Assembly (NCBI GenBank): GCA_018725205.1
Contig: QLUB01000001.1
Coordinates: 1-36,174 of the forward strand
Direction of reading: 5' to 3'
From: a candidate division NPL-UPA2 bacterium
GTDB lineage: Bacteria; Bacillota; UBA994
Length of the DNA: 36,174 bases
Every line of letters begins with the position of its first letter. Positions within the stretch are counted from its first letter, which is position 1. Below the pieces are notes generated by a model. It was not told where the DNA came from, ran no database searches, and worked only from the letters and a program-made list of their open reading frames with translations. This document shows positions 11,494 to 35,591 of this stretch, piece by piece. A program made the translations under genes and the position numbers.

Positions 11494-11494
11494 T

Positions 11495-12139: not shown

Positions 12140-12140
12140 C

Positions 12141-13189: not shown

Positions 13190-13195
13190 ACCAGT

Positions 13196-13936: not shown

Positions 13937-13947
13937 GGAGGTGAATT

Positions 13948-14691: not shown

Positions 14692-14706
14692 CTGGGAGGA
14701 TCGTGG

Positions 14707-16935: not shown

Positions 16936-16946
16936 GTTGAAAAAGC

Positions 16947-17927: not shown

Positions 17928-18936
17928 CAAGTACTTATCGCAAGATGAGATTGACGCCATCCTAAAGTTTGGCGTTAGCCCTGCCGTAGATCTGTCACCC
18001 GCGGAACGCGACGCTTTAGGCGAAGTGGGTAACATTTCGATGGGCACGGCCGCCACCACGCTTTCACAGCTGCTTAATCGTCGGGTAACCATTACCACCC
18101 CGCGCGTAAAGGTGCTAGGGATGAAAGAACTCCTAGCACAGTTCACGGTGCCTTATCTATCTTTGCTCGTTAATTTTACGGTCGGTATGTCCGGGTTTAA
18201 CTTATTCGTTGTGCGCACATCCGACGCCGCGGTGATTGCGGATCTCATGCTCGGAGGCACTGGGCATGTTGAGTCAGCGGAACTTGACGAGATCAAAATT
18301 AGCGCTGTTTCCGAGGCCATGAATCAGATGATTAGCACCGCAGCAACTTCTCTGCACTCTCTTTTCGGGCGTAAGGTGAATATCTCCCCACCCGAAGTAC
18401 TCATGTTCGACGTGCCCCCAAAGGAGGGTGTACTTGCCCACCTTGAACGCGAATCGTTGGCCGTAGTGGCTTTTAAGATGGTCGTAGGCGATTTGATTGA
18501 CAGTGAGTTGCTGCAGGTGATGCCTATAGCTTCGGCTAAACAAATGGTGGAGCACTTGATGGGAGGGTTAGCCTCTAGCAAAGAGAGCCCTAACACCCCG
18601 CCGCAGTCTCCAGAGGTGGCAGTTCACCGCGCGCAGTTCTCGCCTTTGCAGGTGCCTCTCCAGACAGGCCCAGGTCAAAACATAGACCTAATTTTGGATG
18701 TACCCCTACAGGTTTCTGTCGTACTTGGCAAGAGCAGGCGAGCCATCAAGGATGTGCTGGCTATGGGCGCAGGTTCGGTGGTGGAGCTTGACCGCATGGT
18801 GGAAGACCAAGTTGACGTGCTGGTTAACGGCACGCTAATTGCGCGTGGAGAGATTGTGGTGGTCAATGAAAACTTTGGTGTGAGGATTACCAGCATCCTC
18901 AGTCCGGCTGAAAGACTGCGAGAGATTAACAGGTAA
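17911..18936 (+). CDS. fliY: flagellar motor switch protein FliY (CheC-like domain fused to FliN C-terminus)
   Basis: N-terminus LSQDEIDAIL. CheC-type motifs are GEVGNISMGTAATTLSQLLNRRVTITTP and SEAMNQMISTAATSLHSLFGRKVNISPP. C-terminal FliN/SpoA domain is LQVSVVLGKSRRAIKDVLAMGAGSVVELDRMVEDQVDVLVNGTLIARGEIVVVNENFGVRI. Confidence 0.9.
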   Translation: MMSLTSKYLSQDEIDAILKFGVSPAVDLSPAERDALGEVGNISMGTAATTLSQLLNRRVTITTPRVKVLGMKELLAQFTVPYLSLLVNFTVGMSGFNLFVVRTSDAAVIADLMLGGTGHVESAELDEIKISAVSEAMNQMISTAATSLHSLFGRKVNISPPEVLMFDVPPKEGVLAHLERESLAVVAFKMVVGDLIDSELLQVMPIASAKQMVEHLMGGLASSKESPNTPPQSPEVAVHRAQFSPLQVPLQTGPGQNIDLILDVPLQVSVVLGKSRRAIKDVLAMGAGSVVELDRMVEDQVDVLVNGTLIARGEIVVVNENFGVRITSILSPAERLREINR

Positions 18937-19675: not shown

Positions 19676-19733
19676 AATTGGTCACCGGTCGTTAGTCGCA
19701 GGTCACTCTGTGGACGCTGGCTTTCAGCGCTGC

Positions 19734-19762
19734 AAAAACCGCGTGTTCACACGCGGTTTTTC
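19734..19762 (+). terminator. Rho-independent terminator after the P60 gene (A-tract/stem/T-tract, potentially bidirectional)
   Basis: aaaaa-CCGCGTG-ttca-CACGCGG-ttttt: 7-bp GC-rich stem 19739-19745 / 19750-19756, 4-nt loop, T5 at 19757-19761. Confidence 0.75.
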
Positions 19763-19772
19763 CTGTTATAAT
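19746..19772 (+). promoter_or_regulatory. candidate extended -10 promoter for dprA-topA
   Basis: TGtTATAAT at 19764-19772 is a perfect extended -10. TTCACA at 19746-19751 is a possible -35 with a short 15-nt spacer. It lies 34 nt upstream of the dprA ATG and overlaps the terminator hairpin. Confidence 0.4.
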
Positions 19773-19805
19773 TACGAAAGACAGTCGGAGGGAGACAAGC
19801 CCAGT

Positions 19806-20855
19806 ATGGAGAGACGACAGGCCCTAGCGATAATAGCCAAAGTGCGCAGTGTGAGATACACCCAAGTGTCTCACCTTGACTTCGCTCACTTCCCCCTTTA
19901 CTCAGCTGACAGCTGGCATGAAGCGGGTTTGTCTCGTTCTGCTGCCCTAGCCGTTGTGAAGGCGTTTCAGGAACAGGACCATGACCCTCTGTTACAGGCA
20001 AGGGCGAGAGCGATCGTCATTGGTGACCCAGATTATCCACCTACCCTAAACCACCTCTACTCTCCGCCATTGGTCCTCTACGTGCGCGGGCAGCTTGAGG
20101 CAGAACGAGGGGTGGCGGTGGTGGGCACGCGCAAGGCTACGCCATACGGCAGGCAGGCAGTGGAAATGGTGGTGCCTGTGCTTGTTGCCGCTCTACACAC
20201 GGTGGTGAGCGGCCTAGCGCGCGGCATTGACACGTTAGCACATGGCGTTGCGCTGCGCTGTGGCGGGAAAACCATAGCCGTCATGGGTCGCGGCCTAGAC
20301 GCTATTTATCCCCGCGAAAACTCGCTGCTCGCGGAGAAGATTGTGGAACAGGGAGGAGCCCTAGTGAGTGAGTACAGGGAGGGAACTCCGCCGCTTGCTG
20401 GCCATTTCCCCGCGCGGAACCGGATCATTAGCGGTCTGTCGCGCATCTGTCTAGTTATAGAGGGCGATATGGGCAGCGGGGCGCTGATTACCGCCGAACA
20501 CGCGCTGGAGCAGGGGAAAGAGGTTTTGGCGGTGCCGGGCAGCATTTTCAGCCCGCAGAGCAGAGGCACCAATTACCTTATCGCACAGGGAGCGACACCA
20601 CTCCTTGATCCAAATGTAATCTACGAAACGTTAGGTACCCCCGCCAAGCCGCTAGAAGCCCCGACTACGCTTGAGCTCAGGCCTGAGGAATCGCTTGTTC
20701 TTATGGCACTAAGCACGGAACCCCTGAGTGTAGACGAAGTTTGTATGCATACGGGGCTTCCCGTAGCCGTGGCTGCTGCTGCTTTGACTGCGCTAGAGGT
20801 AGCAGAAGCAATTGAACGCCTGCCGGGTGGTGCCTACTTGCGGCTACGCGGATAA
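19806..20855 (+). CDS. dprA: DNA processing protein DprA (Smf)
   Basis: Contains VAVVGTRKATPYGRQA, VSGLARGIDTLAHGVAL and GHFPARNRIISGLS. I place the start at ATG 19806 behind SD GGAGGGAG. The track start at 19710 would run through the terminator. Confidence 0.9.
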   Translation: MERRQALAIIAKVRSVRYTQVSHLDFAHFPLYSADSWHEAGLSRSAALAVVKAFQEQDHDPLLQARARAIVIGDPDYPPTLNHLYSPPLVLYVRGQLEAERGVAVVGTRKATPYGRQAVEMVVPVLVAALHTVVSGLARGIDTLAHGVALRCGGKTIAVMGRGLDAIYPRENSLLAEKIVEQGGALVSEYREGTPPLAGHFPARNRIISGLSRICLVIEGDMGSGALITAEHALEQGKEVLAVPGSIFSPQSRGTNYLIAQGATPLLDPNVIYETLGTPAKPLEAPTTLELRPEESLVLMALSTEPLSVDEVCMHTGLPVAVAAAALTALEVAEAIERLPGGAYLRLRG

Positions 20856-20891
20856 AGACAGGGCTAAAGAGGCAAAGTGAAGTGTAAGTGA

Positions 20892-22976
20892 TTGACTGAG
20901 GTGATTTATCTGCCGAAATATCTCGTGATTGTGGAGTCTCCCGCAAAAGCCAAAACCATCACCAAGTACCTTGGCACCAAGTACGCCGTTAAAGCGTCCT
21001 ATGGACATCTGCGTGACTTGCCTAAGAGTCAGCTAGGTGTGGACATTGACAACGGTTTTGCTCCTAAGTACATAACCATTAGGGGTAAGGGTGATACGGT
21101 GAAAGAACTACGCGAAGCGGCCAAGAAAGCGGACAGGGTGTTTCTGGCCACAGACCCTGACCGAGAGGGCGAGGCTATTTCGTGGCACTTGGCGCATACC
21201 TTAGACCTTAACTTAGAGGGCGCGCTGCGTGTTACTTTTAATGAGATTACCCCGTCAGCTGTACAAAACGCCTTCAAACAACCCCGGCGCATTGACAAGG
21301 ATCTAGTGGACTCCCAACAGGCGAGACGAATCCTTGACCGTATCGTGGGGTACAAGCTGTCCCCGCTGCTGTGGGCAAAGGTAAGAAAAGGTCTCAGCGC
21401 AGGTCGCGTGCAGTCTGTGGCAGTGCGTCTGATTGTCGACCGCGAAAGGGAGATTGGGGCCTTTCAATCTAAGGAATACTGGACATTGCAGGCGTCGCTT
21501 AGACCTAGCCTAGCCAAGCCCTTTCAGGCGAAGTTGATCGGTCGCGAGCTTAGTAGCGAGGCGGAGGTCGACCATCTGTCCTCAGTGCTGCAAAGTCTGC
21601 CATTTGTAGTGAGGGCAGTAAAACAGACTGAGAAGGAACGCAAACCATCCCCACCCTTTAACACGAGCACCCTCCAGCAGGAGGCGGCAAAGCGGCTGGG
21701 GTTTTCTGCTAAACGCACCATGCGCATCGCTCAAACTCTCTATGAAGGGGTTGAGTTGGGGAAAGAGGGCGCAGTGGGACTGATAACCTACATGCGCACG
21801 GACAGCACGCGCCTCGCGGAGGAAGCCTTGTCAGCTGCGGAGGCCTATGTTAGAACGCACTTTGGGCCGCCTTACCACTCTCTACGGCAGTATGCGTCTA
21901 AGCGCGGCCCTGGCGTAAATTCACAGGATGCGCATGAGGCTATCCGCCCGTCCTATGTGGACCGCAAACCAGACGATCTCAAAGCAGCCTTGTCAACAGA
22001 GCAATACAGGCTGTATAAGCTGATTCACGACCGTTTCTTGGCCTCACAGATGTCTAACGCGAGGTTTGACACCGTGCAGGTGGACATCCAAGCAGGTGAT
22101 CACGCGTTTCGCGCGGTTGGCTCGCGCCTAGTATTCCCGGGTTACTTGGCACTGTACGAAGAAGAGAGCGACGATGAAGAGGCCAAAGAAGCCGGTGAAC
22201 TCCCTGTTTTACAAGTTGATCAGGCGTTGTCCCTCGTCAAACTTATGCCTAAACAGCACTTTACCCAGCCCCCACCCCGTTATACAGAAGCCTCGCTAAT
22301 TAAAGCACTAGAAGAGGGGGGAATTGGGAGGCCCAGCACCTATGCGCCCATCCTCGACACCATTCAGGCGCGCGGCTACGTAGGCAAAGAGCAGAAGCGC
22401 TTTATAGCCACCGAACTGGGACAGGTAGTAGTGGACATTCTGACTGAGCACTTTCCGGAACTAGTAGAAGTTAAGTTTACCGCCGCAATGGAGAACAAGC
22501 TTGATGCCATAGAGCATGGGCAAACTACAGCCGTAGACGTCTTGCGCGAGTTCTATGCGGTCTTTGCTGAGCAGTTGGAGAAAGCCCTAGTGGGTGTCGA
22601 AAAAATAGAGGTCGCAGACGAAGTGACGGACGAGATCTGCTCCCTCTGCGGTCGCAACATGGTCATAAAGGATGGGCGTTTCGGGAAGTTTCTTGCCTGC
22701 CCCGGCTTTCCGGCGTGTCGCAATACTAAGCCTTTACTTAAACCCATCGGGGTATCGTGCCCGGTATGCGCGGGCAACATCGTCGAACGTCGCAGCAAGC
22801 GGGGACGTGTGTTTTTTGGCTGTTCAAACTATCCTAACTGCGGCTTTGTGGTGTGGCAAAAACCCAATGAAACGCCGTGTTCGCGTTGCGGGGCCTTTAC
22901 TGTCGAGAAGAAGCGCCGTTCTGGTGAGGTCTACAGTGTCTGTGGCAACCCTGCCTGTGGAGCTGTTAACAAATGA
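20892..22976 (+). CDS. topA: DNA topoisomerase I
   Basis: Toprim motif LVIVESPAKAKTI. Active-site Tyr context is GLITYMRTDSTRL. Three C-terminal Cys4 zinc ribbons (CSLCG...CPGFPAC, CPVCAG...CSNYPNC, CSRCG...CGNPAC). The exact start (TTG 20892) is uncertain. Confidence 0.93.
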   Translation: MTEVIYLPKYLVIVESPAKAKTITKYLGTKYAVKASYGHLRDLPKSQLGVDIDNGFAPKYITIRGKGDTVKELREAAKKADRVFLATDPDREGEAISWHLAHTLDLNLEGALRVTFNEITPSAVQNAFKQPRRIDKDLVDSQQARRILDRIVGYKLSPLLWAKVRKGLSAGRVQSVAVRLIVDREREIGAFQSKEYWTLQASLRPSLAKPFQAKLIGRELSSEAEVDHLSSVLQSLPFVVRAVKQTEKERKPSPPFNTSTLQQEAAKRLGFSAKRTMRIAQTLYEGVELGKEGAVGLITYMRTDSTRLAEEALSAAEAYVRTHFGPPYHSLRQYASKRGPGVNSQDAHEAIRPSYVDRKPDDLKAALSTEQYRLYKLIHDRFLASQMSNARFDTVQVDIQAGDHAFRAVGSRLVFPGYLALYEEESDDEEAKEAGELPVLQVDQALSLVKLMPKQHFTQPPPRYTEASLIKALEEGGIGRPSTYAPILDTIQARGYVGKEQKRFIATELGQVVVDILTEHFPELVEVKFTAAMENKLDAIEHGQTTAVDVLREFYAVFAEQLEKALVGVEKIEVADEVTDEICSLCGRNMVIKDGRFGKFLACPGFPACRNTKPLLKPIGVSCPVCAGNIVERRSKRGRVFFGCSNYPNCGFVVWQKPNETPCSRCGAFTVEKKRRSGEVYSVCGNPACGAVNK

Positions 22977-24304
22977 ACTCGAAATCGGTAACAGTGATTG
23001 GTGGAGGACTAGCCGGTGCCGAGGCCGCCTGGCAACTAGCGCGTCAGGGTGCCGCAGTCACGCTTTACGAGATGCGTCCTAAGCTGAGTACAGGCGCACA
23101 TCATACAGCGTTGCTTGCGGAACTTGTGTGCAGCAACTCCTTGCGTGCCGCCGATTTGGGCAATGCGGTTGGCCTTCTCAAGGAAGAGCTGCGGCAATTG
23201 GATTCCCTAATTATGCGTGCAGCCGCGGCAACGGAAGTGCCTGCGGGAGGAGCAACTGCGGTTGACCGCACCGAGTTTGCGCAGTTCGTGACGCGCGCAG
23301 TAGAGAGTCACCCGCTGATTACTGTGTGCCGCCAAGAGATAACGGAGCTCCCTAAGAGCGGTACAGTCATTGTAGCTTCCGGTCCACTGACCTCAAGCGC
23401 ATTGGCGGAGCATCTGCGCCAAGCCCTAGAAGCTCCCTACCTAGCCTTTTTCGACGCGGCGGCCCCGATTGTACTGGCGGACTCCATCGATATGAGTCAG
23501 GCATTTATGGCCTCTCGGTATGGGAAAGGGGAAGCCGCTTATATAAACTGCCCGCTTAACGAAGAAGAGTACGACCGCTTTTATCAGGCGCTGATTGCTG
23601 CTGAGCGCCAGCAGCTGAGTGATATAGACACCACAGCGTGCTTTGAAGGCTGTATGCCGATTGAGTCGATGGCCGATAGAGGGAGGGATACACCGTTGTT
23701 TGGCCCGCTGAAGCCGGTGGGACTTACTGATCCTAGGACCGGTAAGCGTCCGTTCGCGGTGTTGCAACTGCGGCAGGACAATCGTGGCGCGACCATGTAC
23801 AACCTTGTCGGCTTTCAGACTAGACTCACTTGGCGCGAACAGAAACGCGTATTTAGTCTGATACCCGCCCTGCGCCATGCCGAGTATGTGCGCTTCGGTG
23901 TAATGCATCGCAACACTTTCATCGATTCCCGTTCCGTACTCTGGCCGACTTTGCAGTGGCGCAAAGACGCGCGGGTTTTCTTTGCGGGCCAAGTAACAGG
24001 CGTAGAGGGTTATGTGGAGTCGGCTGCGACTGGCTTAGTGGCAGGCATTAATGCCTATCGGTTCGCTCAGGGTATGGAGCCGCTGGTCCTGCCCGTCGTA
24101 ACCGCGCACGGTGCTCTCATCAATTACATCACGGAACACTCCCCCTCGCCTCTGCAGCCGATGAATGTGACTTTTGGCCTTTTCCCACCCCTTGCTTCTC
24201 CTCCGCGCGAGCGCAGATTGCGTAACCTTGCCTACGCCGAGCGAGCTATGCGAGAATTAACAGAGTTTTTCTGCAAACACAGCCCCAACTGCTTGTGTGG
24301 TTAG
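22973..24304 (+). CDS. trmFO: methylenetetrahydrofolate--tRNA-(uracil-5-)-methyltransferase TrmFO (Gid)
   Basis: FAD motif VTVIGGGLAGAEAAWQLA. Contains LVCSNSLR and MYNLVGFQTRLTW. The ATG overlaps the topA stop (ATGA). Synteny dprA-topA-trmFO supports the call. Confidence 0.9.
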   Translation: MNSKSVTVIGGGLAGAEAAWQLARQGAAVTLYEMRPKLSTGAHHTALLAELVCSNSLRAADLGNAVGLLKEELRQLDSLIMRAAAATEVPAGGATAVDRTEFAQFVTRAVESHPLITVCRQEITELPKSGTVIVASGPLTSSALAEHLRQALEAPYLAFFDAAAPIVLADSIDMSQAFMASRYGKGEAAYINCPLNEEEYDRFYQALIAAERQQLSDIDTTACFEGCMPIESMADRGRDTPLFGPLKPVGLTDPRTGKRPFAVLQLRQDNRGATMYNLVGFQTRLTWREQKRVFSLIPALRHAEYVRFGVMHRNTFIDSRSVLWPTLQWRKDARVFFAGQVTGVEGYVESAATGLVAGINAYRFAQGMEPLVLPVVTAHGALINYITEHSPSPLQPMNVTFGLFPPLASPPRERRLRNLAYAERAMRELTEFFCKHSPNCLCG

Positions 24305-24325
24305 AGCAAGCATGATAAGATTTGG

Positions 24326-25207
24326 GTGGTGATGCGGATGGACAACCATATAGACCATTATTTGCTGAACCTGCGTGTTGCGAGAGGCTGCAGCGAGAAA
24401 ACTGTGAGCAGTTATGCCCTTGATTTACACCAGTTTAAGGAGTTTATCGGGGACAAGTCCATGCACGCTTTGGTGACCGCTGATGTGCGGAGATTTGTTG
24501 CGCAGCTAGCCAAGCGCGGCTATGCCAAGAGCTCTCTGGCTCGGAAGATTTCGTGCCTGCGTTCGTTCTTTGCCTTCCTAATGCTGACGGACGCAGCAAC
24601 TAGAAACCCTGCGGCAGCCGTAGATCTACCTAGGCACAGGCGAGCTCTGCCGACGGTGCTTTACGAGGGCGATGTAGATAGGCTTCTATCGTCAGTCGCG
24701 GGCGAGAAGCTCGTGGCAAGGGACCGCGCATTGCTCGAGCTCCTCTATGCTACGGGGTGTCGAGCCAGTGAGATTGCGGGCCTTAAGTTGGCTGATATTG
24801 ACTGGGAAGCCTGCACGCTCAGGGTCATGGGCAAGGGCGCAAAAGAGCGCATTGTCCCGTTTGGCAAGATAGCTGCACAGCATTTGCAGGCGTACATCGC
24901 AGGGTTGCGCACGCAGCTCGTGACCGACAAGGTCAATCACGTTTTTGTCAACTACCGGGGAAGCCCCTTAAGCAGGCGCAGCTTAGGCCGCATCGTGGAC
25001 AAGTACGTGCGCCAAGGGGACTTCACCGGAGTGACCCCGCACGCCTTGCGCCACAGCTTTGCTACGCATTTGCTCGACAATGGCGCAGACCTGCGTGTTG
25101 TACAGGAGCTCTTAGGACACACTTCGATCTCTACAACCCAGGTGTATACCCATGTGTCCGGCGAGAGAATTAAGGCTGCGTACAACAAAGCACATCCCCG
25201 GGCGTAA
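24326..25207 (+). CDS. xerC: tyrosine recombinase XerC/CodV type
   Basis: Catalytic set: ATGCRASE (Arg), HALRHSFATHLL (His-x-x-Arg...His), LGHTSISTTQVYTHV (His, Tyr). Position after trmFO matches codV in B. subtilis. Several in-frame starts are possible (24326/24332/24338). Confidence 0.88.
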   Translation: MVMRMDNHIDHYLLNLRVARGCSEKTVSSYALDLHQFKEFIGDKSMHALVTADVRRFVAQLAKRGYAKSSLARKISCLRSFFAFLMLTDAATRNPAAAVDLPRHRRALPTVLYEGDVDRLLSSVAGEKLVARDRALLELLYATGCRASEIAGLKLADIDWEACTLRVMGKGAKERIVPFGKIAAQHLQAYIAGLRTQLVTDKVNHVFVNYRGSPLSRRSLGRIVDKYVRQGDFTGVTPHALRHSFATHLLDNGADLRVVQELLGHTSISTTQVYTHVSGERIKAAYNKAHPRA

Positions 25208-25271
25208 GTCTATTGAGCTTTACGCAGTGTGGCATCAGTCTAACGAGTTAAGTAGTCTAGGAGGTAAGAGC

Positions 25272-26045
25272 ATGGGTCTATTAGAAAAAACACGCAAGCT
25301 GAACAAGGTTCTACAACAGGGAGCAGGGGACGCGGTACGATTCAGTGACTTAGCGCAGCTGTTTGGTCACGTCTTTCGCGCGAACACGTACATTCTCAAC
25401 ATCCGTGGCAAGCTTTTGGGGGTAGCGCTGATTGACGACTACGAGTGTGACTTGCTTAAGCGACATGTCCGCTCCGGCCGTTTCCCGGCGGACTACAACG
25501 ACAAAATACTCTCAATCACCGAGAGCAACATCAACTGTCGAGAAACCGAGAACTGCGTGTTTGACGCTTCGGAGTGCCAACATACCCGTAAGTTAACCAC
25601 CATAATTCCTGTCGTCGGCAGAGGTGAGAGGCTCGGCACAATGCTCATAGCCCGCTTTGATGAGCCTCTAAACGACGATGACGTGGCTTTGGCTGAATTT
25701 GGCGCAACCATTCTGGCTATGGAGATTCTCAGAGCGCGCCAAGAATTAGCCAGCCAAGAGTCAAGACAGCGCGCGGTAGTGGAGATGGCGGTGGATGCTC
25801 TGTCCTACTCCGAGCTAGAAGCCATTGAGCACATCATCCGTGAGCTGGGCACTGAGAGCGAGGGACTGCTGGTAGCCAGTAAAATTGCCGACCAGGCTGG
25901 CATCACCCGCTCAGTGATTGTGAACGCCCTGCGTAAGCTCGAAAGCGCCGGTGTCATTGAATCTCGCTCGCTGGGTATGAAGGGAACTTACATCAAAGTT
26001 CTCAACAACAAGCTCCTTGAAGAGATGGCCAAGCAGGGGCATTAG
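25272..26045 (+). CDS. codY: GTP/BCAA-sensing global regulator CodY
   Basis: N-terminus MGLLEKTRKLNKVLQ. C-terminal wHTH is ASKIADQAGITRSVIVNALRKLESAGVIESRSLGMKGTYIKVLN. ATG 25272 follows SD AGGAGG. The track start at 25152 lies inside xerC. Confidence 0.93.
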   Translation: MGLLEKTRKLNKVLQQGAGDAVRFSDLAQLFGHVFRANTYILNIRGKLLGVALIDDYECDLLKRHVRSGRFPADYNDKILSITESNINCRETENCVFDASECQHTRKLTTIIPVVGRGERLGTMLIARFDEPLNDDDVALAEFGATILAMEILRARQELASQESRQRAVVEMAVDALSYSELEAIEHIIRELGTESEGLLVASKIADQAGITRSVIVNALRKLESAGVIESRSLGMKGTYIKVLNNKLLEEMAKQGH

Positions 26046-26055
26046 GACAAGCTCC

Positions 26056-27027
26056 TTAAATTCGCAGTGAGCGCTGTAAGGCATTCTGCAGCAAATGGTT
26101 TATTAGTTGCTCATAGGATAGCCCTCCTGCAAGCGCAGCTTTGGGGTAGTCGCTATAGCCCGGCTCAATGCCGGGCAATGTGTTCACGTCAATAACATAG
26201 GGCACCCCACTGGCGTCAACACGTACATCAATGCGGGCGTAATCGCGGCAGCCGAGGGCGTTGAAGGCGTCAAGAACAACATCTCCTATCCTTTGTAGCA
26301 GTGCGGGGTGAATGTCCGCCGGGCACTTGGTTTCTACTGCATCGCGTGACTTTACTTGTTGGGTGTAGAAATCACCGCTGCCAGTAAACATAATTTCTAC
26401 AGGTGGGAGAATTCGCGCGATGGGTGCTTCAAGTACTCCTACGGTAAATTCGCGTCCGGCAACAAATTCCTCGACGAGAGCAGGCTGCCTAAACTGCTGA
26501 ATCACTTGCTCGGAGATAGTTCTTGCTTCACGGGGGGATAAAGCTACGCTCTTGGCTGAGATGCCAATGCTTGAGCCCTCGCGTTCCGGCTTGACAATAA
26601 CTGGGTAACTCAGTCCAATTGGCAAATCGTCGTCAAATTTATCTATTACCACAAAGGCAGGTGTGGGCACGCCATGAAAAGACAGCACCTTTTTAGCCAG
26701 TGGCTTGTATAGTGCTAGTGTGTGAGCTGTCTGACCGCTGCCCGTGAACGGGATTTTGGAGAGCTCTAAGAGGCCTGCAATTTGCGGCTGACTGGACTTA
26801 TCGTTGATCCCGGTGCAGTTGTTAAAGATCACGTCAGGGCGCAACTCGAACAGCTTGTTAAGTAAATTGAAGTCGCCAGGAATTAGATATGGGTAGTGCC
26901 CCAACGCTTCAATTGCCCGTTTAAGAGCGTCGTTGGTTTTGCCCAGTTGCTCGGCACCGTGGGGGTTAGCTATGCCGTGTGGGTGGTTTGCTTCTACTGT
27001 GTAGACGATTGCTATGCGGAGGCTCAT
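26056..27027 (-). CDS. D-alanine--D-alanine ligase family ATP-grasp enzyme (substrates unknown)
   Basis: C-terminal half is EEFVAGREFTVGVLE...CRDYARIDVRVDASGVPYVIDVNTLPGIEPGYSDYPKAALAGGLSYEQLINHLL, the Ddl-type ATP-grasp pattern. The N-terminus lacks the canonical Ddl GG-S-EHEVS motif. SD GGAAGGAG lies 8 nt upstream of the ATG on the minus strand. Confidence 0.8.
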   Translation of the reverse strand: MSLRIAIVYTVEANHPHGIANPHGAEQLGKTNDALKRAIEALGHYPYLIPGDFNLLNKLFELRPDVIFNNCTGINDKSSQPQIAGLLELSKIPFTGSGQTAHTLALYKPLAKKVLSFHGVPTPAFVVIDKFDDDLPIGLSYPVIVKPEREGSSIGISAKSVALSPREARTISEQVIQQFRQPALVEEFVAGREFTVGVLEAPIARILPPVEIMFTGSGDFYTQQVKSRDAVETKCPADIHPALLQRIGDVVLDAFNALGCRDYARIDVRVDASGVPYVIDVNTLPGIEPGYSDYPKAALAGGLSYEQLINHLLQNALQRSLRI

Positions 27028-27181: not shown

Positions 27182-28336
27182 GTGTTAGCTCCTATCCAAC
27201 CCTCGCGAAAGTCGAGATTTCGTCAAAAGACAGCTAAGCAGTTGTTGCCAAGAATAGCGGTACTTGGCGCAGGCCATGGCGGGCAGGGTATGGCTGGACA
27301 CTTGGGCCTTATGGGTTGTGAAGTATCGCTGTACAATCGCAGTGCTGACCGCATCGCGCCATTTGCCATGGCCAAGAGCATTGAACTCACTGGGCAAATA
27401 GAGGGCTTTGGTGCTCTAGAGCAAGTCACTACAGATATGGAATCGGCCATTAAAGACGCGGCGCTGATTATGGTTGTGGTGCCGGCAAACGGTCATGCGG
27501 CGATAGCTCGAGCTTGCGCCCCGTACCTACGCGACGGGCAGATTGTGGTGTTGCACCCCGGTCGTACCGGCGGTGCACTAGAGTTTTTTAATATTATTCG
27601 TGAGCACGGGTGTACCGCTAATGTAATTATCTCGGAAGCATCCACTCTGATCTATGCTTGCCGTATGTTAAATCCTGCGAAAGTACATGTTTTTGGCATT
27701 AAGAACGTTATCCCAGTAGCCGCTATCCCTAGCTACCGCACCCCAGAGGTGATTAACAAGTTAAACATCATCTACCCTCAGTTCGTGCCCGGGGATAACG
27801 TTTTGAAGACTAGTCTGGACAATATCGGCGCTATCTTTCACCCCGCACTCACGATTCTCAATGCAGGGCGCATCGAATCGACACACGGCGAGTTTGATTT
27901 CTATATGGACGGTGCTACGCCGGCGGTAGCGCGCGTTCTGGAGACAATGGACATGGAAAGAGTAGCTGTGGCGGCAGCTTTAGGAATTCGGGCAATGACG
28001 GCCCGGGAATGGCTCTATATCGCCTATGACGCCGCAGGCAGAACGCTCTACGAAGCTATGCAGGCCAATATAGGGTATAAGGGGATTACTGCTCCACCTA
28101 CGACCTTGATGCGGTATATCACCGAAGATGTCCCCATGAGTCTGGTGCCCATGTCCTCACTAGGGCATCACCTCAACGTGCCCACCCCCATGATTGACAA
28201 CATGATCCATCTCGCCTCGGTCATTCACGATACCGACTACTGGGCTGAAGGGAGAACGGTGGAGACTATGGGGCTAGCTGAGCTATCGGTAAAGCAAATT
28301 CGGAAACTAGTGCTGGAGGGTACGCTTGATGTCTAA
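27182..28336 (+). CDS. NAD(P)-dependent opine (octopine/nopaline) dehydrogenase family oxidoreductase
   Basis: Rossmann motif IAVLGAGHGGQGMAGHLGLMGCEVSLYNR. The C-terminal region IFHPALTILNAGRIESTHGEFDFYMDGATPAVARVLETMDMERVAVAAALGI...REWL fits the Octopine_DH domain pattern. Strong SD AAGGAGGAG at 27166-27174 with GTG start 27182. A 24-aa basic extension precedes the Rossmann fold. Confidence 0.8.
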   Translation: MLAPIQPSRKSRFRQKTAKQLLPRIAVLGAGHGGQGMAGHLGLMGCEVSLYNRSADRIAPFAMAKSIELTGQIEGFGALEQVTTDMESAIKDAALIMVVVPANGHAAIARACAPYLRDGQIVVLHPGRTGGALEFFNIIREHGCTANVIISEASTLIYACRMLNPAKVHVFGIKNVIPVAAIPSYRTPEVINKLNIIYPQFVPGDNVLKTSLDNIGAIFHPALTILNAGRIESTHGEFDFYMDGATPAVARVLETMDMERVAVAAALGIRAMTAREWLYIAYDAAGRTLYEAMQANIGYKGITAPPTTLMRYITEDVPMSLVPMSSLGHHLNVPTPMIDNMIHLASVIHDTDYWAEGRTVETMGLAELSVKQIRKLVLEGTLDV

Positions 28337-29960
28337 GCGAATCCTTGGTGCTGCTATTGGGAGCTGCGTACATGTCGCGGGCATAGTCTCTTTCCTGCAG
28401 ATAGCTGAGCAGCTGGGAAGACGCACCCATTTTCTTGGGCCTGCCACTCCAATCAATGCCTTGATTGCAGCGAGCCTAGAGTTGAAACCTGACTTAATTG
28501 CCGTGAGCTACCGCCTAAGCCCCGAGGCGGCAGGAGCCTTGCTAAACGAATTAAAGGCATCGCTTGCAGCGGCAGGCCTCGCCGGTACGGAGCTTGTGTT
28601 TGGCGGAACACTGCCCGTAGCGGCAGTCGCTCGTGAAGCCGATATGTTCTCGCGTATTTTTTCAGGTGAGGACGGACCAGTCGAAGTCTTAGCTTACTTG
28701 CGTGGCGAAAAAGTAGGGGATGCGGTGACGAGGCCGCCGCAGAGCCTCTTAGCAAGGATTAATGCCAAGTCCCCCTATCCGTTGATTCGGCATCACTTCG
28801 GCTTGTCTGACCTGCAGGCTACTATCGAAGGTGTAAAAGCAATTGCCGGAGCAAAAGTGCTCGACGTTCTATCGCTCGGTCCCGACCAGAACGCCCAATA
28901 TGCTTTTTTCCGGCCACAGGAAATGGACCCCCTTCAGCACGGAGCGGGGGGAGTGCCGGTGCGCACTAGTTCCGACCTAGAGAGTATCTATGCCGCGTCG
29001 CGTACAGGCAACTATCCCTTGCTGCGCTGCTATTCCGGCACGCGCGACCTCTTGAAATGGGCTGAAATGAGCCTAGAGACGATCAATAACGCTTGGGCAG
29101 CCGTCCCGTTGTGCTGGTACAACGTGTTGGACGGCAGATCCAACAGATCTCCCAGCGAAAGCATTACCGAGAACCAGAGGGTTATGGCCTGGCATGCCGA
29201 GCGCGGGATACCTGTTGAGGTGAACGAGGCGCATCACTGGAGCCTGCGGGACGCTCCGGATGTTGTGGCCGTGGCAGCGGCTTACTTAGCCGCCCTTAAT
29301 GCCAAGCGCATGGGAGTCGGAACTTACGTAGCGCAGTATATGTTTAACACCCCCGTGGGAACCTCGTATGTAGCCGACCTTGCCAAAATGTTGGCCAAAC
29401 AAATTTTGATCGAAGCCTTACACGATGACAGTTTTGCCTCTGTGCGCCAGGTGCGGACGGGGCTGATGAGCCTTTCCTCCAACATGGCAGTGGCTAAAGG
29501 GCAGTTAGCATCATCCATTGCGTTGGCACTTTCCCTTAGACCTCAAATCGTCCATGTCGTAGGGTACTCGGAAGCCAATTTCGCCGCCACGCCCGAGGTG
29601 GTTGCCGAAAGCTGCAATATCATCCACGGAGTGGTACGCAACTACCTCTTCGGTGCGCCGAATCCTAGTACGGACCCGAATGTGGCAGCTAGGCGCGACT
29701 TCCTAGTGGCTGAGGTTACGCTTTTGCTCGAGGCCATAGCTGAGCTTGGCAATGGTCCTGACTCTTTGACTGACCCGAGGACGATCGCCCGGGCGATTGA
29801 AGTCGGGTATCTAGATGCTCCTCACCTTAAAGGCAATCCCTACGCACTTGGCGTCGTGAAGACTAAGATGCTAGATGGGGCCTGTATGGCCATTGATGAG
29901 CAAAATCGCCCACTCGGTGAGGCCGAGCGTACGCAGCGGGTTTCATTTCGCTTGCCTTAA
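28329..29960 (+). CDS. fusion protein: N-terminal B12-binding-like (MutS-like) Rossmann domain plus C-terminal TIM barrel resembling glutamate mutase E subunit
   Basis: The N-terminus KRILGAAIGSCVHVAGIV...PDLIAVSYRL...ELVFGGTL aligns by eye with glutamate mutase S (TIVLGVIGSDCHAVGNKI...ADAILVSSLYG...LLYVGGNI). C-terminal segments PLLRCYSGTRDLLKWAE, LCWYNV and AAAYLAALNAKRMGVGTYVAQYMFN resemble GlmE segments recalled from memory. The ATG at 28329 overlaps the stop of the upstream dehydrogenase (TAA 28334-28336). SD GGAGGG at 28315-28320. Confidence 0.55.
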   Translation: MSKRILGAAIGSCVHVAGIVSFLQIAEQLGRRTHFLGPATPINALIAASLELKPDLIAVSYRLSPEAAGALLNELKASLAAAGLAGTELVFGGTLPVAAVAREADMFSRIFSGEDGPVEVLAYLRGEKVGDAVTRPPQSLLARINAKSPYPLIRHHFGLSDLQATIEGVKAIAGAKVLDVLSLGPDQNAQYAFFRPQEMDPLQHGAGGVPVRTSSDLESIYAASRTGNYPLLRCYSGTRDLLKWAEMSLETINNAWAAVPLCWYNVLDGRSNRSPSESITENQRVMAWHAERGIPVEVNEAHHWSLRDAPDVVAVAAAYLAALNAKRMGVGTYVAQYMFNTPVGTSYVADLAKMLAKQILIEALHDDSFASVRQVRTGLMSLSSNMAVAKGQLASSIALALSLRPQIVHVVGYSEANFAATPEVVAESCNIIHGVVRNYLFGAPNPSTDPNVAARRDFLVAEVTLLLEAIAELGNGPDSLTDPRTIARAIEVGYLDAPHLKGNPYALGVVKTKMLDGACMAIDEQNRPLGEAERTQRVSFRLP

Positions 29961-29980: not shown

Positions 29981-30096
29981 AAACGTCGGTGTTTTATCAC
30001 ACACGCTGCCGGATGTGCTAAGTGGTGCCGTGCCTCGAAGGCCACGGTCTTGGCGCAGTAGAAGGCGCGGAGGGAAAACCTAAGGAGGTGAGTCTC

Positions 30097-30795
30097 ATGG
30101 CAGTTATCAGCATGAAACAATTACTCGAAGCGGGCGTGCACTTTGGTCATCAAACGCGCCGCTGGAACCCCAAGATGGCTCCATTCATCTTTATGGAGCG
30201 TAACGGCATCTACATCATCGACCTGCAGAAGACCGTGCGCAAATTAGATGAGGCTTACGCGTTCGTGAAGAGCGTTGTAGCCAATGGAGAAAACATCATG
30301 TTTGTCGGGACAAAGAAGCAGGCGCAGGAGGCAGTCGCCGAAGAAGCTCGTCGCTGCAACATGTTCTTCGTGAACCAGCGCTGGCTGGGCGGCACGCTAA
30401 CTAATTTCCAAACAATTGAAAAGCGTATCAAGCGTTTGCATGAGCTTGAGCGCATGGAAGCCGATGGCACGTTTGACGTTCTTCCCAAAAAAGAGGTCAT
30501 CAACTTGCGCAAGGAAATGGACAGGTTAGAGAAGTTCCTTGGCGGTATCCGGAACATGCGCCAGCTTCCAGGGGCGCTATTTGTCATTGATCCCCGCAAG
30601 GAGCGAAATGCCATAGCCGAGGCGCGCAGGCTTCGTATTCCCATCGTGGCCATCGTTGACACTAACTGCGATCCTGACGAAATAGACTACATTATTCCGG
30701 GGAATGATGACGCCATCCGCGCGGTTAGGCTGTTAACTGCGACCATGGCCGATGCTGTCCTCGAAGCTAGGCAGGGCGAGCAGTTAGCGGAGTAG
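30097..30795 (+). CDS. rpsB: 30S ribosomal protein S2
   Basis: [32 protein letters not shown] is the canonical S2 N-terminus. SD AAGGAGGTG at 30082-30090. The track start at 30022 is an upstream in-frame extension. Confidence 0.95.
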
Positions 30796-30834
30796 CGGTA
30801 CGAGTAAGGATGCGAAACGAGGGAGGTATGCACT

Positions 30835-31458
30835 ATGGCCAAAATTGAAGCCAGTCTCGTAAAGGACCTGCGTGAACGCACAGGCGCCGGCATGATGGAC
30901 TGCAAGAAAGCGCTTAATGAAACTAATGGCGACATGGAAAAGGCAGTCGAGTTCCTGCGTGAGAAGGGACTAGCGGCCGCCAATAAAAAGGCCGGGCGTA
31001 TCACTAGCGAGGGTGTGGTTGAGTCCTACATCCACGGTAACGGCCGCATAGGTGTGCTCGTGGAAGTGAATTGTGAGACTGATTTTGTTGCTAAGACGAA
31101 CGAGTTTCGCGCTCTTTGCCGCGATATCGCCATGCAAATCGCTGCGGCTAACCCGCAGTATATTGTGCGCGAGGAGGTCCCCGCGCACATAATTCAACAC
31201 GAAAAAGACATATTGCGAGCGCAGGCCATCAACGAGGGCAAGCCGGAAAAGATTATCGACAAAATGGTAGAGGGTCGCCTAGAGAAATTCTTTGCTGATG
31301 TGTGTCTTATGGAGCAACCCTTCATTCGCGAGGGGGAAGTCACCGTTAAGGAGCATATCCAGTCGAGGGTTGCAACTACCGGAGAAAACATCACAGTGCG
31401 CCGGTTTGTCCGCTATCAAATGGGTGAAGGTCTGCCCAAACGCACCAGCGAGGAGTAA
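30835..31458 (+). CDS. tsf: translation elongation factor Ts
   Basis: [40 protein letters not shown] is the EF-Ts UBA-like N-terminus. Contains [12 protein letters not shown]. Short (207 aa) form. Confidence 0.95.
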
Positions 31459-31466
31459 CGCACAGA

Positions 31467-31493
31467 GGGGAACACGGGAGTGTTCCCCTTTTT
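31467..31493 (+). terminator. Rho-independent terminator after tsf
   Basis: GGGGAACAC-ggga-GTGTTCCCC: 9-bp stem 31467-31475 / 31480-31488, followed by TTTTT at 31489-31493. Confidence 0.85.
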
Positions 31494-31495
31494 GA

Positions 31496-32877
<1,382 letters not shown>

Positions 32878-32882
32878 CGCAC

Positions 32883-32901
32883 TCCCCCCAAAGTGGGGGG
32901 A
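32883..32901 (+). other. GC-only stem-loop between frr and uppS (no U-tract)
   Basis: TCCCCCC-aaagt-GGGGGGA: 7-bp stem 32883-32889 / 32895-32901. The following sequence, ttatgc, is not T-rich, so this is not a classical terminator. Confidence 0.35.
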
Positions 32902-32927
32902 TTATGCTACAGGAGGAAGGCATAAGA

Positions 32928-33647
32928 ATGTTCCGGCGTAAACTTTCACTTCCCGCATCAGACGCGAGTCCCTTGCCCTCACATATAGCAATCATCATGG
33001 ACGGCAACGGCCGGTGGGCCGAGCGACGCGGCTTGCCGCGCACGGCTGGCCATCGCGCAGGTCTAGAGAGCACTCGGCGTGTCATTAAGGAATCTGTGCG
33101 GCTTGGCATAAAGTATCTTACTCTATACACGTTTTCGACTGAAAACTGGAAACGTCCTTCCACGGAAGTGGAGTTCATCATGAGCTTGCCGGGGGAGTTC
33201 TGGCGCAGGGAACGCCCTGCACTGGAAGAGGCAAATGTGCGCCTAAAAGTTTTAGGTGACATCAATGGACTGCCGCCGGCTACACGTCACGTTGTTCTGG
33301 AAGCTGTAGCGGCAACGCAGAACGCCTCTGGACTTACCGTCAGCCTTGCTCTTAACTACGGCGGGCGGGCAGAGATTGTGAGAGCCGCGCGCCTGTTTAT
33401 GGAGCGCTATGGCATTGTAGGCAACGAGGCCGACTTTGCCACTGGCTTATACACTGCGGAACTGCCTGACCCGGAGCTGCTTATCCGCCCGGGCGGCGAA
33501 AGGCGCATCAGCAACTTCCTTCTTTGGCAGTTGGCATACACAGAACTATTCTTCGTAGATAAGCTTTGGCCAGACTTTGATGGCAACGACCTTGTTCGAG
33601 TCATTGAGGAATATCGCGGTCGCAGCGTCAGGCGAGGAGGATTATAG
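32928..33647 (+). CDS. uppS: undecaprenyl (isoprenyl) diphosphate synthase
   Basis: HIAIIMDGNGRWA and ERRISNFLLWQLAYTELFF. ATG 32928 follows SD AGGAGGA (32911-32917). Confidence 0.93.
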   Translation: MFRRKLSLPASDASPLPSHIAIIMDGNGRWAERRGLPRTAGHRAGLESTRRVIKESVRLGIKYLTLYTFSTENWKRPSTEVEFIMSLPGEFWRRERPALEEANVRLKVLGDINGLPPATRHVVLEAVAATQNASGLTVSLALNYGGRAEIVRAARLFMERYGIVGNEADFATGLYTAELPDPELLIRPGGERRISNFLLWQLAYTELFFVDKLWPDFDGNDLVRVIEEYRGRSVRRGGL

Positions 33648-33663
33648 CGTTAGGGGGCTGCCT

Positions 33664-34440
33664 GTGCTTACTAAAGTTCTTACTGTGCTAGTAGCGCTTC
33701 CCATTTTCCTCGTCGTAATCTATGAAGGGGCGCTGCCCATGACGCTCCTGACGATGGTGCTTGCGATCATTGCGGTAGCGGAAATGAAGAATCTCTTACG
33801 GTCTAAGAGCATAGCCACGAGTTCTTTAGTCTATTGGTTTCCCATACTCTATTTAGGGGCAGTCCATGTTGGAGCAGTCTGGTTCGGGCTGCAGCTGGTT
33901 GTGGCTTTGTGCGCCGCGCTATTGATTCGTCAGCTGATTACGTTCCCCTCGTTTAGTTTGGCCGAAGTAGGGGCTAATCTGCTGGCAGCTCTATATCCCT
34001 CCCTTCTCCTTGGGAATTTACTCCTTCTGCGCGCTGAGGCTGGCGTCATGTGGGCCTTGGCAGCTGTTATCGGGGTATGGGCTTATGATTCTTTTGCCTA
34101 CTTTATTGGAGTGCAGTTCGGCCGTTTGCGACCTTGGCGGGACATTTCGCCTAAGAAGAGCGTAGAAGGGGCACTCGGGGGGCTGCTAGGAAGCGTCCTG
34201 GTCTTCGCCGTAGTTCACGGCTATTTGCGTATAGGTCTGATAGGGGCCATAGTCCTAGGCATACTGGTCGGCGTGGTAGGGCAGTTGGGCGATCTTGCGG
34301 AATCGGCTCTGAAACGATATGTGGGCGTAAAGGACTCGGGTACTCTACTCCCGGGACATGGCGGCGTCCTCGACAGATTCGACTCGCTAATGTTCTCGGC
34401 CACCGCGGTGTATTGGGTATGGACGGCGATAACACTATGA
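33664..34440 (+). CDS. cdsA: phosphatidate cytidylyltransferase
   Basis: Polytopic membrane protein with SALKRYVGVKDSGTLLPGHGGVLDRFDS (CdsA signature). I prefer GTG 33664 after the uppS stop. The track start at 33577 lies inside uppS. Confidence 0.9.
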   Translation: MLTKVLTVLVALPIFLVVIYEGALPMTLLTMVLAIIAVAEMKNLLRSKSIATSSLVYWFPILYLGAVHVGAVWFGLQLVVALCAALLIRQLITFPSFSLAEVGANLLAALYPSLLLGNLLLLRAEAGVMWALAAVIGVWAYDSFAYFIGVQFGRLRPWRDISPKKSVEGALGGLLGSVLVFAVVHGYLRIGLIGAIVLGILVGVVGQLGDLAESALKRYVGVKDSGTLLPGHGGVLDRFDSLMFSATAVYWVWTAITL

Positions 34441-35591
34441 AGGACATCATAGTTCTAGGTTCCACGGGTTCCATAGGCGCAAACACTCTGGATGTCGTAC
34501 GGCGCAATCCCCATCGACTGCGGATAGTGGGACTTGGCGCTGGGCTCAACTTGGCATTACTGCGGGCGCAAGTGCGAGAGTTCACTCCCGCCTCTGTAGC
34601 CATACGCGACACAGCCAGTGAGTGGGCGCTTCGTCAGGAGTTTCCGAGTCTCACCGTGTTTTCAGGCGAATCTGGCGCTGTAGATTTGGTGAGAGAGTCC
34701 CAGGCAGAAGTCGTGGTAGCGGCGACGAGCGGCATGGCGGGCCTTCCGGCAGTGTTCGCTGCAGCAGAACAAGGTGTTCGTCTAGCACTTGCCAATAAAG
34801 AAGCGCTAGTGGCTGCAGGTCCTCTGCTCCTAGAAAAGGTCAGGCGACATGGAGGGGAACTTGTACCCGTAGATAGTGAGCACTCTGCCATTTGGCAGGC
34901 ACTGAGGGGGTGGCGCGCATCGGATGTAAAGAGGCTGATTCTTACAGCCTCCGGCGGCCCGTTTCTCGGCAAACCTCGCTCTCTGCTCGCGACGCAGACC
35001 TCAAATGATGCTTTGCGGCATCCCACTTGGCGCATGGGACGCAAGATAACCGTGGATTCGGCAACGTTGATGAATAAGGGCTTGGAGATCATTGAGGCCC
35101 ATCACCTATTTAACATCTCATACGAACACATTGAGGTCTTAGTGCATCCGGAGAGCATTGTGCACTCTATGGTTGAGTTCATAGACGGCTCCCAGCTAGC
35201 CCAGTGCAGCCGTCCGGATATGCGTATTCCCATCCAGCTGGCGCTGTCCTATCCCGAACGGTGGTCGGGGGATTATGTCCTAAACAACTGGCAAAACACA
35301 ACGTGGTCGTTTCATCTCCCAGATGTAGAGACTTTCCGCTGTCTTCCCCTAGCAATTGCTGCGGGGAGAGCTGGCGGCTCACATCCAATTGTGCTTAATG
35401 CCAGCAATGAACTTGCTGTGGATGCTTTCCTAGCTGGGAGGGTGCCTTTCCTCGCCATTGAGGCCATCGTGGAGGAGGCAATGTCTGCAAGCCTGCCCTC
35501 CCCTCCACAGGATGTTCTTGACGTTCTGGAGGTTGACACATGGGCGCGCAATCAGGCTCAAGCGATTATTAGACAGAAAGCGGTGTACTAG
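34437..35591 (+). CDS. dxr: 1-deoxy-D-xylulose 5-phosphate reductoisomerase
   Basis: MKDIIVLGSTGSIGANTLDV, LANKEALV, PVDSEHSAIWQ. ATG 34437 forms ATGA with the cdsA stop. Confidence 0.93.
   Translation: MKDIIVLGSTGSIGANTLDVVRRNPHRLRIVGLGAGLNLALLRAQVREFTPASVAIRDTASEWALRQEFPSLTVFSGESGAVDLVRESQAEVVVAATSGMAGLPAVFAAAEQGVRLALANKEALVAAGPLLLEKVRRHGGELVPVDSEHSAIWQALRGWRASDVKRLILTASGGPFLGKPRSLLATQTSNDALRHPTWRMGRKITVDSATLMNKGLEIIEAHHLFNISYEHIEVLVHPESIVHSMVEFIDGSQLAQCSRPDMRIPIQLALSYPERWSGDYVLNNWQNTTWSFHLPDVETFRCLPLAIAAGRAGGSHPIVLNASNELAVDAFLAGRVPFLAIEAIVEEAMSASLPSPPQDVLDVLEVDTWARNQAQAIIRQKAVY

Follow-up and report, generated by a model that had tools for sequence, protein, structure and literature searches.

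The stretch analysed here (the window) comprises 36,174 nucleotides (nt) of DNA, positions 1 to 36,174 of the forward strand of contig QLUB01000001.1 (assembly GCA_018725205.1), from a metagenome-assembled genome (MAG) of a candidate division NPL-UPA2 bacterium, a lineage reported from serpentinite-hosted systems. At 28326/28329-29960 on the plus strand it contains an intact, real open reading frame (ORF), the product of which is identical to MBT9155070.1 of this MAG, labelled 'hypothetical protein' in GenBank. The protein combines a cobalamin (B12)-binding domain with a barrel like that of the glutamate mutase subunit GlmE, and its gene directly follows that of an opine dehydrogenase. The features of the locus are as follows.

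28329..29960, plus strand: ORF of 543 amino acids (aa), B12-binding domain and GlmE-like barrel in a single chain (Pfam, AlphaFold2 and Foldseek; MBT9155070.1).
28329..28703, plus strand: GlmS-like Rossmann cobalamin-binding domain, aa 1 to about 125 (PF02310 at aa 4-102; corrinoid-domain profile matches; Foldseek matches to GlmS 1i9c_A and to 4r3u_C).
28365..28382, plus strand: C13-V-H15-V-A-G18, the motif of the lower-ligand His, with Cys at the Asp position (codons and homologue alignment).
28506..28517, plus strand: S60-Y61-R62-L63 in place of S-x-L, with an invariant Arg62 at the Leu column (alignments to 1y80 and 4jgi).
28602..28610, plus strand: G92-G93-T94, the GG element of the nucleotide-tail pocket (family alignment).
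28704..28775, plus strand: low-confidence interdomain linker, aa about 126-149 (predicted local distance difference test score, pLDDT, dipping at residues 110-140 and below 50 at 130-132).
28776..29957, plus strand: GlmE-like (beta/alpha)8 barrel with a C-terminal helical/beta extension, aa about 150-543 (Foldseek, hhalign, PF06368).
27182..28336, plus strand: opine dehydrogenase gene, its stop codon overlapping the start of the mutase-like gene (PF02317 Octopine_DH, E 5e-50; match to 1bg6).
26056..27027, minus strand: divergent gene for an ATP-grasp ligase like D-Ala-D-Ala ligase (Ddl), a facultative third partner, scoring below the D-Ala-D-Ala ligase cut-offs.

Translation from the ATG at 28329 gives the N-terminus MSKRILGAAIGSCVHVAG, which agrees with the homologues (MSKRILGA against a consensus of MxxKILGA). 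The upstream gene ends in TAA at 28334-28336, its final 8 nt containing this ATG, and the sequence GGAGGG is found about 10 nt 5' of it; from this overlap and the GGAGGG the two genes look translationally coupled. A first-pass annotation, made from the letters alone, had described one ORF carrying a MutS-like and a MutE-like part with the B12-like domain at the N-terminus, and Pfam, Foldseek and hhalign all bore this out.

The codons at 28365-28382 (tgc gta cat gtc gcg ggc) encode C-V-H-V-A-G, as the annotation had read them. A profile built from a 22-sequence family alignment matched the solved corrinoid domains 4jgi, OraE 3kow, 2yxb, 1y80, and GlmS 1be1, and in the profile alignment the C-x-H-x-x-G column of the family fell on the D-x-H-x-x-G of these domains. 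PF02310 was matched by all 22 sequences, and in a single-sequence search of the PDB the best match of the B12 domain was OraE (3kow). The N-terminal part is accordingly a corrinoid-type domain and not the generic Rossmann fold without a corrinoid pocket that the annotation had entertained. Its GG element (LVFGGTL) was found at aa 89-95. The element described as an imperfect S-x-L (VSYRL, aa 59-63) is also as stated: Ser60 of the family matches that of S-x-L, and at the usual Leu column there is an invariant Arg62.

The relationship of the barrel was recognized through structure prediction, Foldseek, and profile-profile alignment, since PDB-sequence searches with the whole protein or with the family profile found the B12 domain alone. 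The AlphaFold2 model of the 543-aa protein (pLDDT 84.8; predicted template modelling score, pTM, 0.81) placed both domains in one chain. When the model was compared with the PDB by Foldseek, the top match of the C-terminal part was GlmE (6h9e_B/1cb7_B; E about 4e-17, template modelling (TM) score 0.66-0.68, 18% identity), and the N-terminal part matched GlmS (1i9c_A). Next came the ornithine and lysine aminomutases (OraE 3kow; KamD 1xrs and 8t0v; E 1e-11 to 1e-9), and far weaker matches were given by the acyl-CoA mutases (E 1e-8 to 1e-6, TM 0.2-0.45). The top structural neighbours, namely GlmE, OraE, KamD, MCM, IcmF, and HCM, are all adenosylcobalamin (AdoCbl) isomerases. With hhalign, a barrel-only profile of 63 diverse sequences including paralogues aligned with GlmE over 382 columns (probability 83.9%, E 7.8e-6). 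PF06368 (Met_asp_mut_E) was matched by 10 of the 22 sequences of the family alignment, with a best E of 2.6e-8. The C-terminal domain is thus MutE-like by structure and profile comparison, a point on which the annotation had allowed for the opposite outcome.

The residues of the glutamate site were mapped with hhalign and the 63-sequence profile. The GlmE reference was that of the E. coli O157 glm operon, mapped onto the numbering of C. cochlearium GlmE, and a GlmE alignment was then built. The correspondences, GlmE residue first, were as follows.

Arg66: His156, with an invariant Arg154 two residues earlier.
Asp96: Asp186, conserved.
Arg100: Gln190, replaced.
Arg149: Tyr235, with an invariant Arg233 two residues earlier.
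His150: Ser236, replaced.
Gly151/Thr152/Asp154: Gly237/Thr238/Asp240, conserved.
Glu171: Pro260 (29106..29108, plus strand), non-acidic; Pro in 208 of 209 homologues.
Tyr177/Asn178: Tyr264/Asn265, conserved.
His291: Arg376, replaced.
Lys326: Val411, replaced.
Glu330: Glu415 (29571..29573, plus strand), conserved; Glu in 207 of 209 homologues.

The residues of the window protein at all these positions are invariant or nearly so among the 209 homologues, and the family-specific invariant residues R154, R212, R233, R270, and D268 are present. Across alignments Glu171 fell on either A257 or P260, and no acidic residue is found in the segment NAWAAVPLCWYNV, so that the earlier remark on the loss of the Glu upstream of the YNV segment was right. 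E297, which Pfam profile coordinates had offered as the equivalent of Glu171, was ruled out by explicit alignments. According to published structures and mutant studies of GlmE, its Arg66, Arg100, and Arg149 (the 'arginine claw') clamp both carboxylates of glutamate, Glu171 handles the substrate amino group as a base, and Glu330 and Lys326 hold the adenosyl ribose. Replacement of the claw and of Glu171 together with retention of Glu415 indicates that the glutamate pocket has probably been rebuilt while one adenosyl contact, the Glu330 equivalent, survives. As judged from its sequence, the protein resembles glutamate mutase in fold, lacks its glutamate-binding residues, and is most probably not a glutamate mutase.

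The window protein belongs to a large family. At the level of 90% identity, matches came from more than 5,900 clusters, and at 50% from 1,052 representatives, 263 of which had an E below 1e-30; the species genomes that encode a relative number at least 572. Among these are genomes of Thermoanaerobacter, Caldanaerobacter, Halothermothrix, Anoxybacter, Fervidicola, Armatimonadota, Bacteroidales/Rikenellaceae, and Ignavibacteria/Melioribacter, as well as Aminicenantes, Cloacimonadota, Dehalococcoidia, Desantisbacteria, and one Promethearchaeota MAG. In databases the members are named 'cobalamin B12-binding domain-containing protein', 'methionine synthase', or 'methylmalonyl-CoA mutase cobalamin-binding subunit', of which 'methionine synthase' is wrongly applied. 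Pairwise identity across phyla averages 55% (range 46-75%), and the family is apparently under strong purifying selection.

Alignment of homologues, a check proposed in the annotation, showed that C-x-H-x-x-G is conserved: position 13 is Cys in 191 of 209 distinct full-length homologues, Asp in 17, and Pro in one. In the same set H15 and G18 are each kept in 208 sequences and R62 in all 209. The Asp-type sequences look like one clade; they share the signature residues Y52, E266, and D406 and otherwise resemble the Cys-type. The distant paralogues (about 600-630 aa) mostly have D-P-H-T-x-G or D-A-H-T-L-G, with Cys in some (P0176, P0150, and P0152). Since both residues occur in the family as well as among the paralogues, the switch between Asp and Cys appears to have happened at least twice, with the His-on scaffold otherwise the same; this argues that Cys stands in for Asp in the hydrogen bond to the His and that the site is still functional. 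The nearly invariant His, Gly, GG, and Ser, together with the interchange of Cys and Asp, likewise point to a working His-on site. Those carriers that can be named are anaerobic by lineage or habitat, which would fit tolerance of a thiol at this position. In a few of the family representatives, P0142 (GDPKYTNE) and P0146 (GDGPRTGA), the His motif is lost and much of the barrel is kept; these may be degenerate or cofactor-independent offshoots.

The product of the gene at 27182-28336 matched N-(1-D-carboxyethyl)-L-norvaline dehydrogenase (CENDH; 1bg6) of Arthrobacter over its full length (E 2.5e-80), and His202, Arg292, and Asp297 are identical. By these criteria of sequence, the partner is a genuine opine dehydrogenase. 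Gene context was surveyed in 82 non-redundant loci from many phyla. In 75 of them an Octopine_DH gene directly precedes the mutase-like gene on the same strand, in many cases with an overlap. Two loci (L029 and L062) have it downstream, four contigs stop at the gene, and in L044 none was seen. The mutase-like gene and the opine dehydrogenase gene thus form a near-obligate pair. Pairwise identities of the two proteins were correlated (r = 0.73, 74 pairs). Furthermore, Octopine_DH genes adjoin distant paralogues of three clades or lie within the same cluster (L089-L092 and L087/L088, respectively), indicating that the pairing is probably older than the split of the superfamily.

A gene for the chaperone GlmL/MutL, an accessory protein of glutamate mutase, lies immediately downstream in six of the 82 loci, including L007 and L008 (PF13941, E 1e-148); at 498 bits it exceeds the equivalog cut-off of 475 bits set for GlmL in NCBIfam. 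The proteins of L007 and L008 are of the Cys-type and 64-65% identical to the window protein, which ruled out that GlmL is confined to Asp-type members. GlmL/MutL is also fused to the paralogues P0150 and P0152 (L089:7001-10801), proteins of 1,226-1,266 aa. These genes and fusions tie the family to the biology of AdoCbl mutases. Two other fusions, of P0135 with an ATP-grasp domain of the glutathione-synthetase/RimK type and of P0138 with Peptidase_M15_3, were each seen on one short contig and could be artefacts of assembly or gene calling. A gene for methylaspartate ammonia-lyase is absent from the window and was not among the recurrent neighbours at the 82 loci, unlike in the glm-mal operon of E. 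coli O157, and no methyltransferases were found among the neighbours of the surveyed loci.

Two types of amide ligase recur beside the pair, one or the other in about half of the loci. An ATP-grasp gene like that of the window lies nearby in 13 of the 82 loci, and the closest relatives (L006 and L007) have the same divergent layout as the window. An AsnB-like gene is present in 30 loci. Most of the AsnB-like proteins begin with MAGI, MSGI, or MGGI rather than MCGI, that is, the N-terminal Cys nucleophile is gone; examples are L034:8971-10320, L024, L037, L066, and about 20 other loci, and the Cys is kept only in L031, L065, and L067. A start without MCGI means that the glutaminase nucleophile is missing, as in beta-lactam synthetase or lasso-peptide cyclases. 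No locus of the 82 carries both ligase types, which suggests that they are alternatives for one step.

On balance we favour the reading that the window protein is an AdoCbl-dependent radical isomerase of the glutamate-mutase/2-methyleneglutarate-mutase class, which acts on a substrate other than free L-glutamate and works as a unit with the opine dehydrogenase. The binding of AdoCbl and homolysis of the Co-C bond are inferred from two observations, Glu415 and the linkage to GlmL. The near-constant opine dehydrogenase neighbour suggests a B12 radical reaction of a kind not yet described. From the loss of the acidic residue, the first-pass annotation had argued for a different substrate or even a non-mutase function. 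The former idea is strengthened, because Glu171 and all three claw arginines are replaced in register; the latter became less likely in view of Glu415 and the GlmL links.

In the mechanism that we propose, His15 of the GlmS-like domain would be the lower ligand of cobalt in the base-off/His-on state, tuned by Cys13 in place of the Asp that normally hydrogen-bonds the His. The flexible linker would join this domain to the barrel, which would cover the upper, adenosyl face, generate a substrate radical, and bring about a 1,2 carbon-skeleton shift. Two kinds of substrate may be considered. First, the dehydrogenase could condense an amino acid with a 2-oxo acid to an N-(1-carboxyalkyl) amino acid (opine), the carbon skeleton of which would then be rearranged by the mutase; the small residues at the Glu171 site would give room to the N-substituent, and the extra invariant R212, R270, and R273 would bind the added carboxylate. 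Second, the mutase could interconvert 2-oxo or amino dicarboxylates, for example in a conversion of the type 2-oxoglutarate to 3-methyloxaloacetate (compare 2-methyleneglutarate mutase), and the dehydrogenase would trap the labile product through reductive condensation. In either case a third enzyme would probably couple the product by an amide bond, namely the Ddl-like ATP-grasp ligase here and the Cys-less AsnB-like adenylating enzyme elsewhere. More tentatively, and with considerable doubt, the two enzymes may form a new and ancient module spread over many anaerobic phyla, in which an AdoCbl enzyme rearranges an opine or a 2-oxo dicarboxylate trapped by the dehydrogenase and a non-canonical amino acid is supplied to an amide-linked product, such as a component of the cell envelope, a capsule, or a small peptide.

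Several points weigh against the assignment as an AdoCbl isomerase with a new substrate. The domain matches of the window protein itself fall short of the thresholds: PF02310 (E 2e-7) is slightly under its gathering score, PF06368 (aa 281-530, E 3e-5) reaches 23.1 bits against a gathering score of 26.6, and the NCBIfam MutS models NF002612 and TIGR01501 give about 15 bits against cut-offs of 110-136. Earlier hhalign runs, in which a 22-sequence profile was aligned with one GlmE or with 14 GlmE sequences, were co-linear with a probability of only 5-9%, and the rise to 84% came solely with the more diverse profile, to which divergent paralogues had been added. Mutants of Asp14 in glutamate mutase are severely impaired. 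The locus in the window has no GlmL gene, and within the 36-kb window there are no genes for cobalamin synthesis, uptake, or transport and no B12 riboswitch (Rfam, gathering thresholds). In addition, the argument from the pocket depends on the functions assigned to the claw residues, Glu171, Glu330, and Lys326 of GlmE, and both substrate proposals come from chemical reasoning.

Replacement of the Asp in the ligand dyad would also be expected of a non-catalytic protein, that is, a cobalamin sensor or store, or a pseudoenzyme, which modulates the adjoining dehydrogenase. The complete loss of the His motif in P0142 and P0146 and the lack of cobalamin genes in the window would agree with such a role. 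However, more than 60 barrel positions are invariant among the 22 sequences at 46-75% identity across phyla, which points to a precise active site; moreover, the Glu330 equivalent is kept, GlmL is linked, and Asp- and Cys-type members are otherwise alike. We therefore regard a non-catalytic role as unlikely.

An ordinary glutamate (methylaspartate) mutase, in which the S and E subunits are merely fused and which serves glutamate fermentation or the supply of 3-methylaspartate, would account for the best structural match being GlmE plus GlmS, for the Pfam MutE and NCBIfam MutS matches, and for the GlmL genes beside some relatives. It is quite unlikely, because the claw and Glu171 are not kept in register, identity to GlmE is 18%, the MutS scores are far below their cut-offs, the recurrent neighbours of the 82 loci include no methylaspartate ammonia-lyase, and the partner is an opine dehydrogenase. 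An aminomutase dependent on both pyridoxal phosphate (PLP) and AdoCbl, like ornithine 4,5-aminomutase or lysine 5,6-aminomutase, could be argued from the second place of OraE and KamD among the structural matches and from OraE as the best single-sequence match of the B12 domain. The family, however, is missing the short 'khgg' insertion of 3kow_A, which presumably carries the PLP lysine (Lys629 of OraE); GlmE is clearly a better match than the aminomutase barrels, and a partner like OraS or KamE is not present, which makes an aminomutase very unlikely. A corrinoid methyl carrier or methionine-synthase-like protein, in keeping with the database names ('methionine synthase', 'methionine synthase I cobalamin-binding subunit') and with the B12 profile also matching the corrinoid methyltransferase proteins 4jgi, 1y80, and 7xcn, is highly improbable, since the C-terminal 400 aa are a GlmE-type barrel, GlmL is adjoining or fused, Pfam showed neither a B12-binding_2 cap nor any pterin-binding, homocysteine-binding, or URO-D-type methyltransferase domain in the 22 members, and the names were most likely inherited from the match of the B12 domain alone.

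As a putative AdoCbl isomerase, the protein can be compared with known systems. In GlmS/GlmE (C. cochlearium/C. tetanomorphum; 1CCW, 1I9C, 6H9E) the spacing of the B12 motifs is nearly equal: 13/15/18, 60, and 92-93 here against D14/H16/G19, S61, and G91-92 in GlmS. The barrel fold is shared and co-linear, the G-T-x-D strand motif, Tyr177/Asn178, and Glu330 are kept, and GlmL accompanies some relatives. The window protein differs in being a single chain where glutamate mutase has two subunits, in having Cys for Asp and S-Y-R-L for S-x-L, in a pocket whose Arg residues on strands 1 and 3 (R154 and R233) stand two residues earlier, and in its partner, which is an opine dehydrogenase and not methylaspartase. 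The 2-methyleneglutarate mutase (Mgm) of Eubacterium barkeri is a single-chain AdoCbl carbon-skeleton mutase related to GlmE, the substrate of which is a dicarboxylate that bears no amino group; its B12 domain, with the canonical Asp, stands at the C-terminus, and its gene belongs to the nicotinate fermentation cluster, beside that for methylitaconate isomerase. Compared with Mgm, the window protein is also single-chain, whereas its B12 domain is N-terminal and its neighbour is an opine dehydrogenase. IcmF, one of the Foldseek matches, is likewise a natural fusion with a base-off/His-on B12 domain N-terminal to the barrel, but IcmF and the acyl-CoA mutases have an acyl-CoA-binding barrel of the MCM type and a G-protein insert. 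The product of the partner gene is a full-length homologue of CENDH (Arthrobacter sp. 1C, 1BG6), for which we know of no link to a B12 enzyme. By analogy only, the pyrrolysine enzymes PylB, PylC, and PylD follow a similar logic: they comprise a radical carbon-skeleton mutase that forms a methyl-branched amino acid, an ATP-grasp ligase resembling Ddl, and a dehydrogenase that uses NAD and works on a C-N bond. PylB is a radical S-adenosylmethionine enzyme and not of the B12/GlmE type, PylD is not an opine dehydrogenase, and homology is not claimed.

The scaffold is thus that of the known GlmE-class B12 mutases; the fusion order, the ligand dyad, the rebuilt pocket, and the obligate partner are new. 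We found no description of the family, the pairing, or the C-x-H-x-x-G motif in the searchable literature, outside of which most subscription journals lie, so that this is not proof of absence. To our knowledge, families of AdoCbl isomerases are few and new ones rare, and each of the acyl-CoA mutase variants IcmF, HCM, ECM, and PCM was notable. If the more tentative reading of a two-enzyme module is true, it would mean a new substrate class of B12 mutases, a natural Cys-His lower-ligand dyad, and the first physiological role for bacterial opine dehydrogenases of the CENDH type. The family has thousands of members in anaerobes of gut, sediment, digester, hot-spring, and serpentinite habitats. 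A glutamate-mutase scaffold with a rebuilt pocket, a natural Cys for the 'essential' Asp, and a near-obligate opine dehydrogenase would make the effect of a Cys-His pair on Co-N and Co-C chemistry testable, and it raises the questions of what purpose bacterial opine dehydrogenases serve and which metabolite joins a radical mutase, an imine-forming dehydrogenase, and an amide ligase. The assignment would also correct the widespread misannotation as 'methionine synthase' or 'methylmalonyl-CoA mutase cobalamin-binding subunit'.

Some further loci were observed in the survey. In L087/L088 (5800-13000), a 620-aa paralogue of Rikenellaceae (P0273) with a canonical D-x-H-x-x-G lies in a surface-polysaccharide cluster, together with two ATP-grasp ligases, PGA_cap, an aldo-keto reductase, Octopine_DH, a DegT aminotransferase, and glycosyltransferases, a composition that would fit a glycan carrying an opine-type or unusual amino-acid substituent. 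A contig binned as Promethearchaeota (Asgard; L020:2487-5446) carries a dehydrogenase-mutase pair with a mutase 57% identical to the window protein, which could reflect horizontal transfer or a binning error. The MAG of L005/L015 (GCA_050260415.1) is labelled Bacteroidota; judging by a Spore_YunB gene that lies a few kb away from the pair, its contig or bin would seem to be of Bacillota origin.

In the window, the cassette of Ddl-like ligase, opine dehydrogenase, and mutase-like genes is inserted between codY and rpsB. Its flanks (19710-26045 and 30022-35591) follow the usual Bacillota order, with dprA-topA-trmFO-xerC-codY on one side and rpsB-tsf onward on the other; the genes after tsf are presumably those of the typical order, by which they were named. 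The hslVU pair was not seen between xerC and codY. The xerC and codY ORFs as listed overlap by 56 nt, so that one of the two start codons probably lies further downstream. In promoter and terminator scans around the cassette, sites were no commoner than in shuffled sequences. The 20 genes upstream are flagellar, chemotaxis, and housekeeping genes. Among them, a flagellar/chemotaxis operon at 5659-18936 contains fliR, flhB, flhA, flhF, a MinD-like flhG, a PilZ/YcgR-like gene, a sigma factor gene, flgG-type rod genes, cheR, cheC/X, cheY, fliM, and fliN/Y, showing that, as predicted from its genes, this NPL-UPA2 MAG encodes motility.

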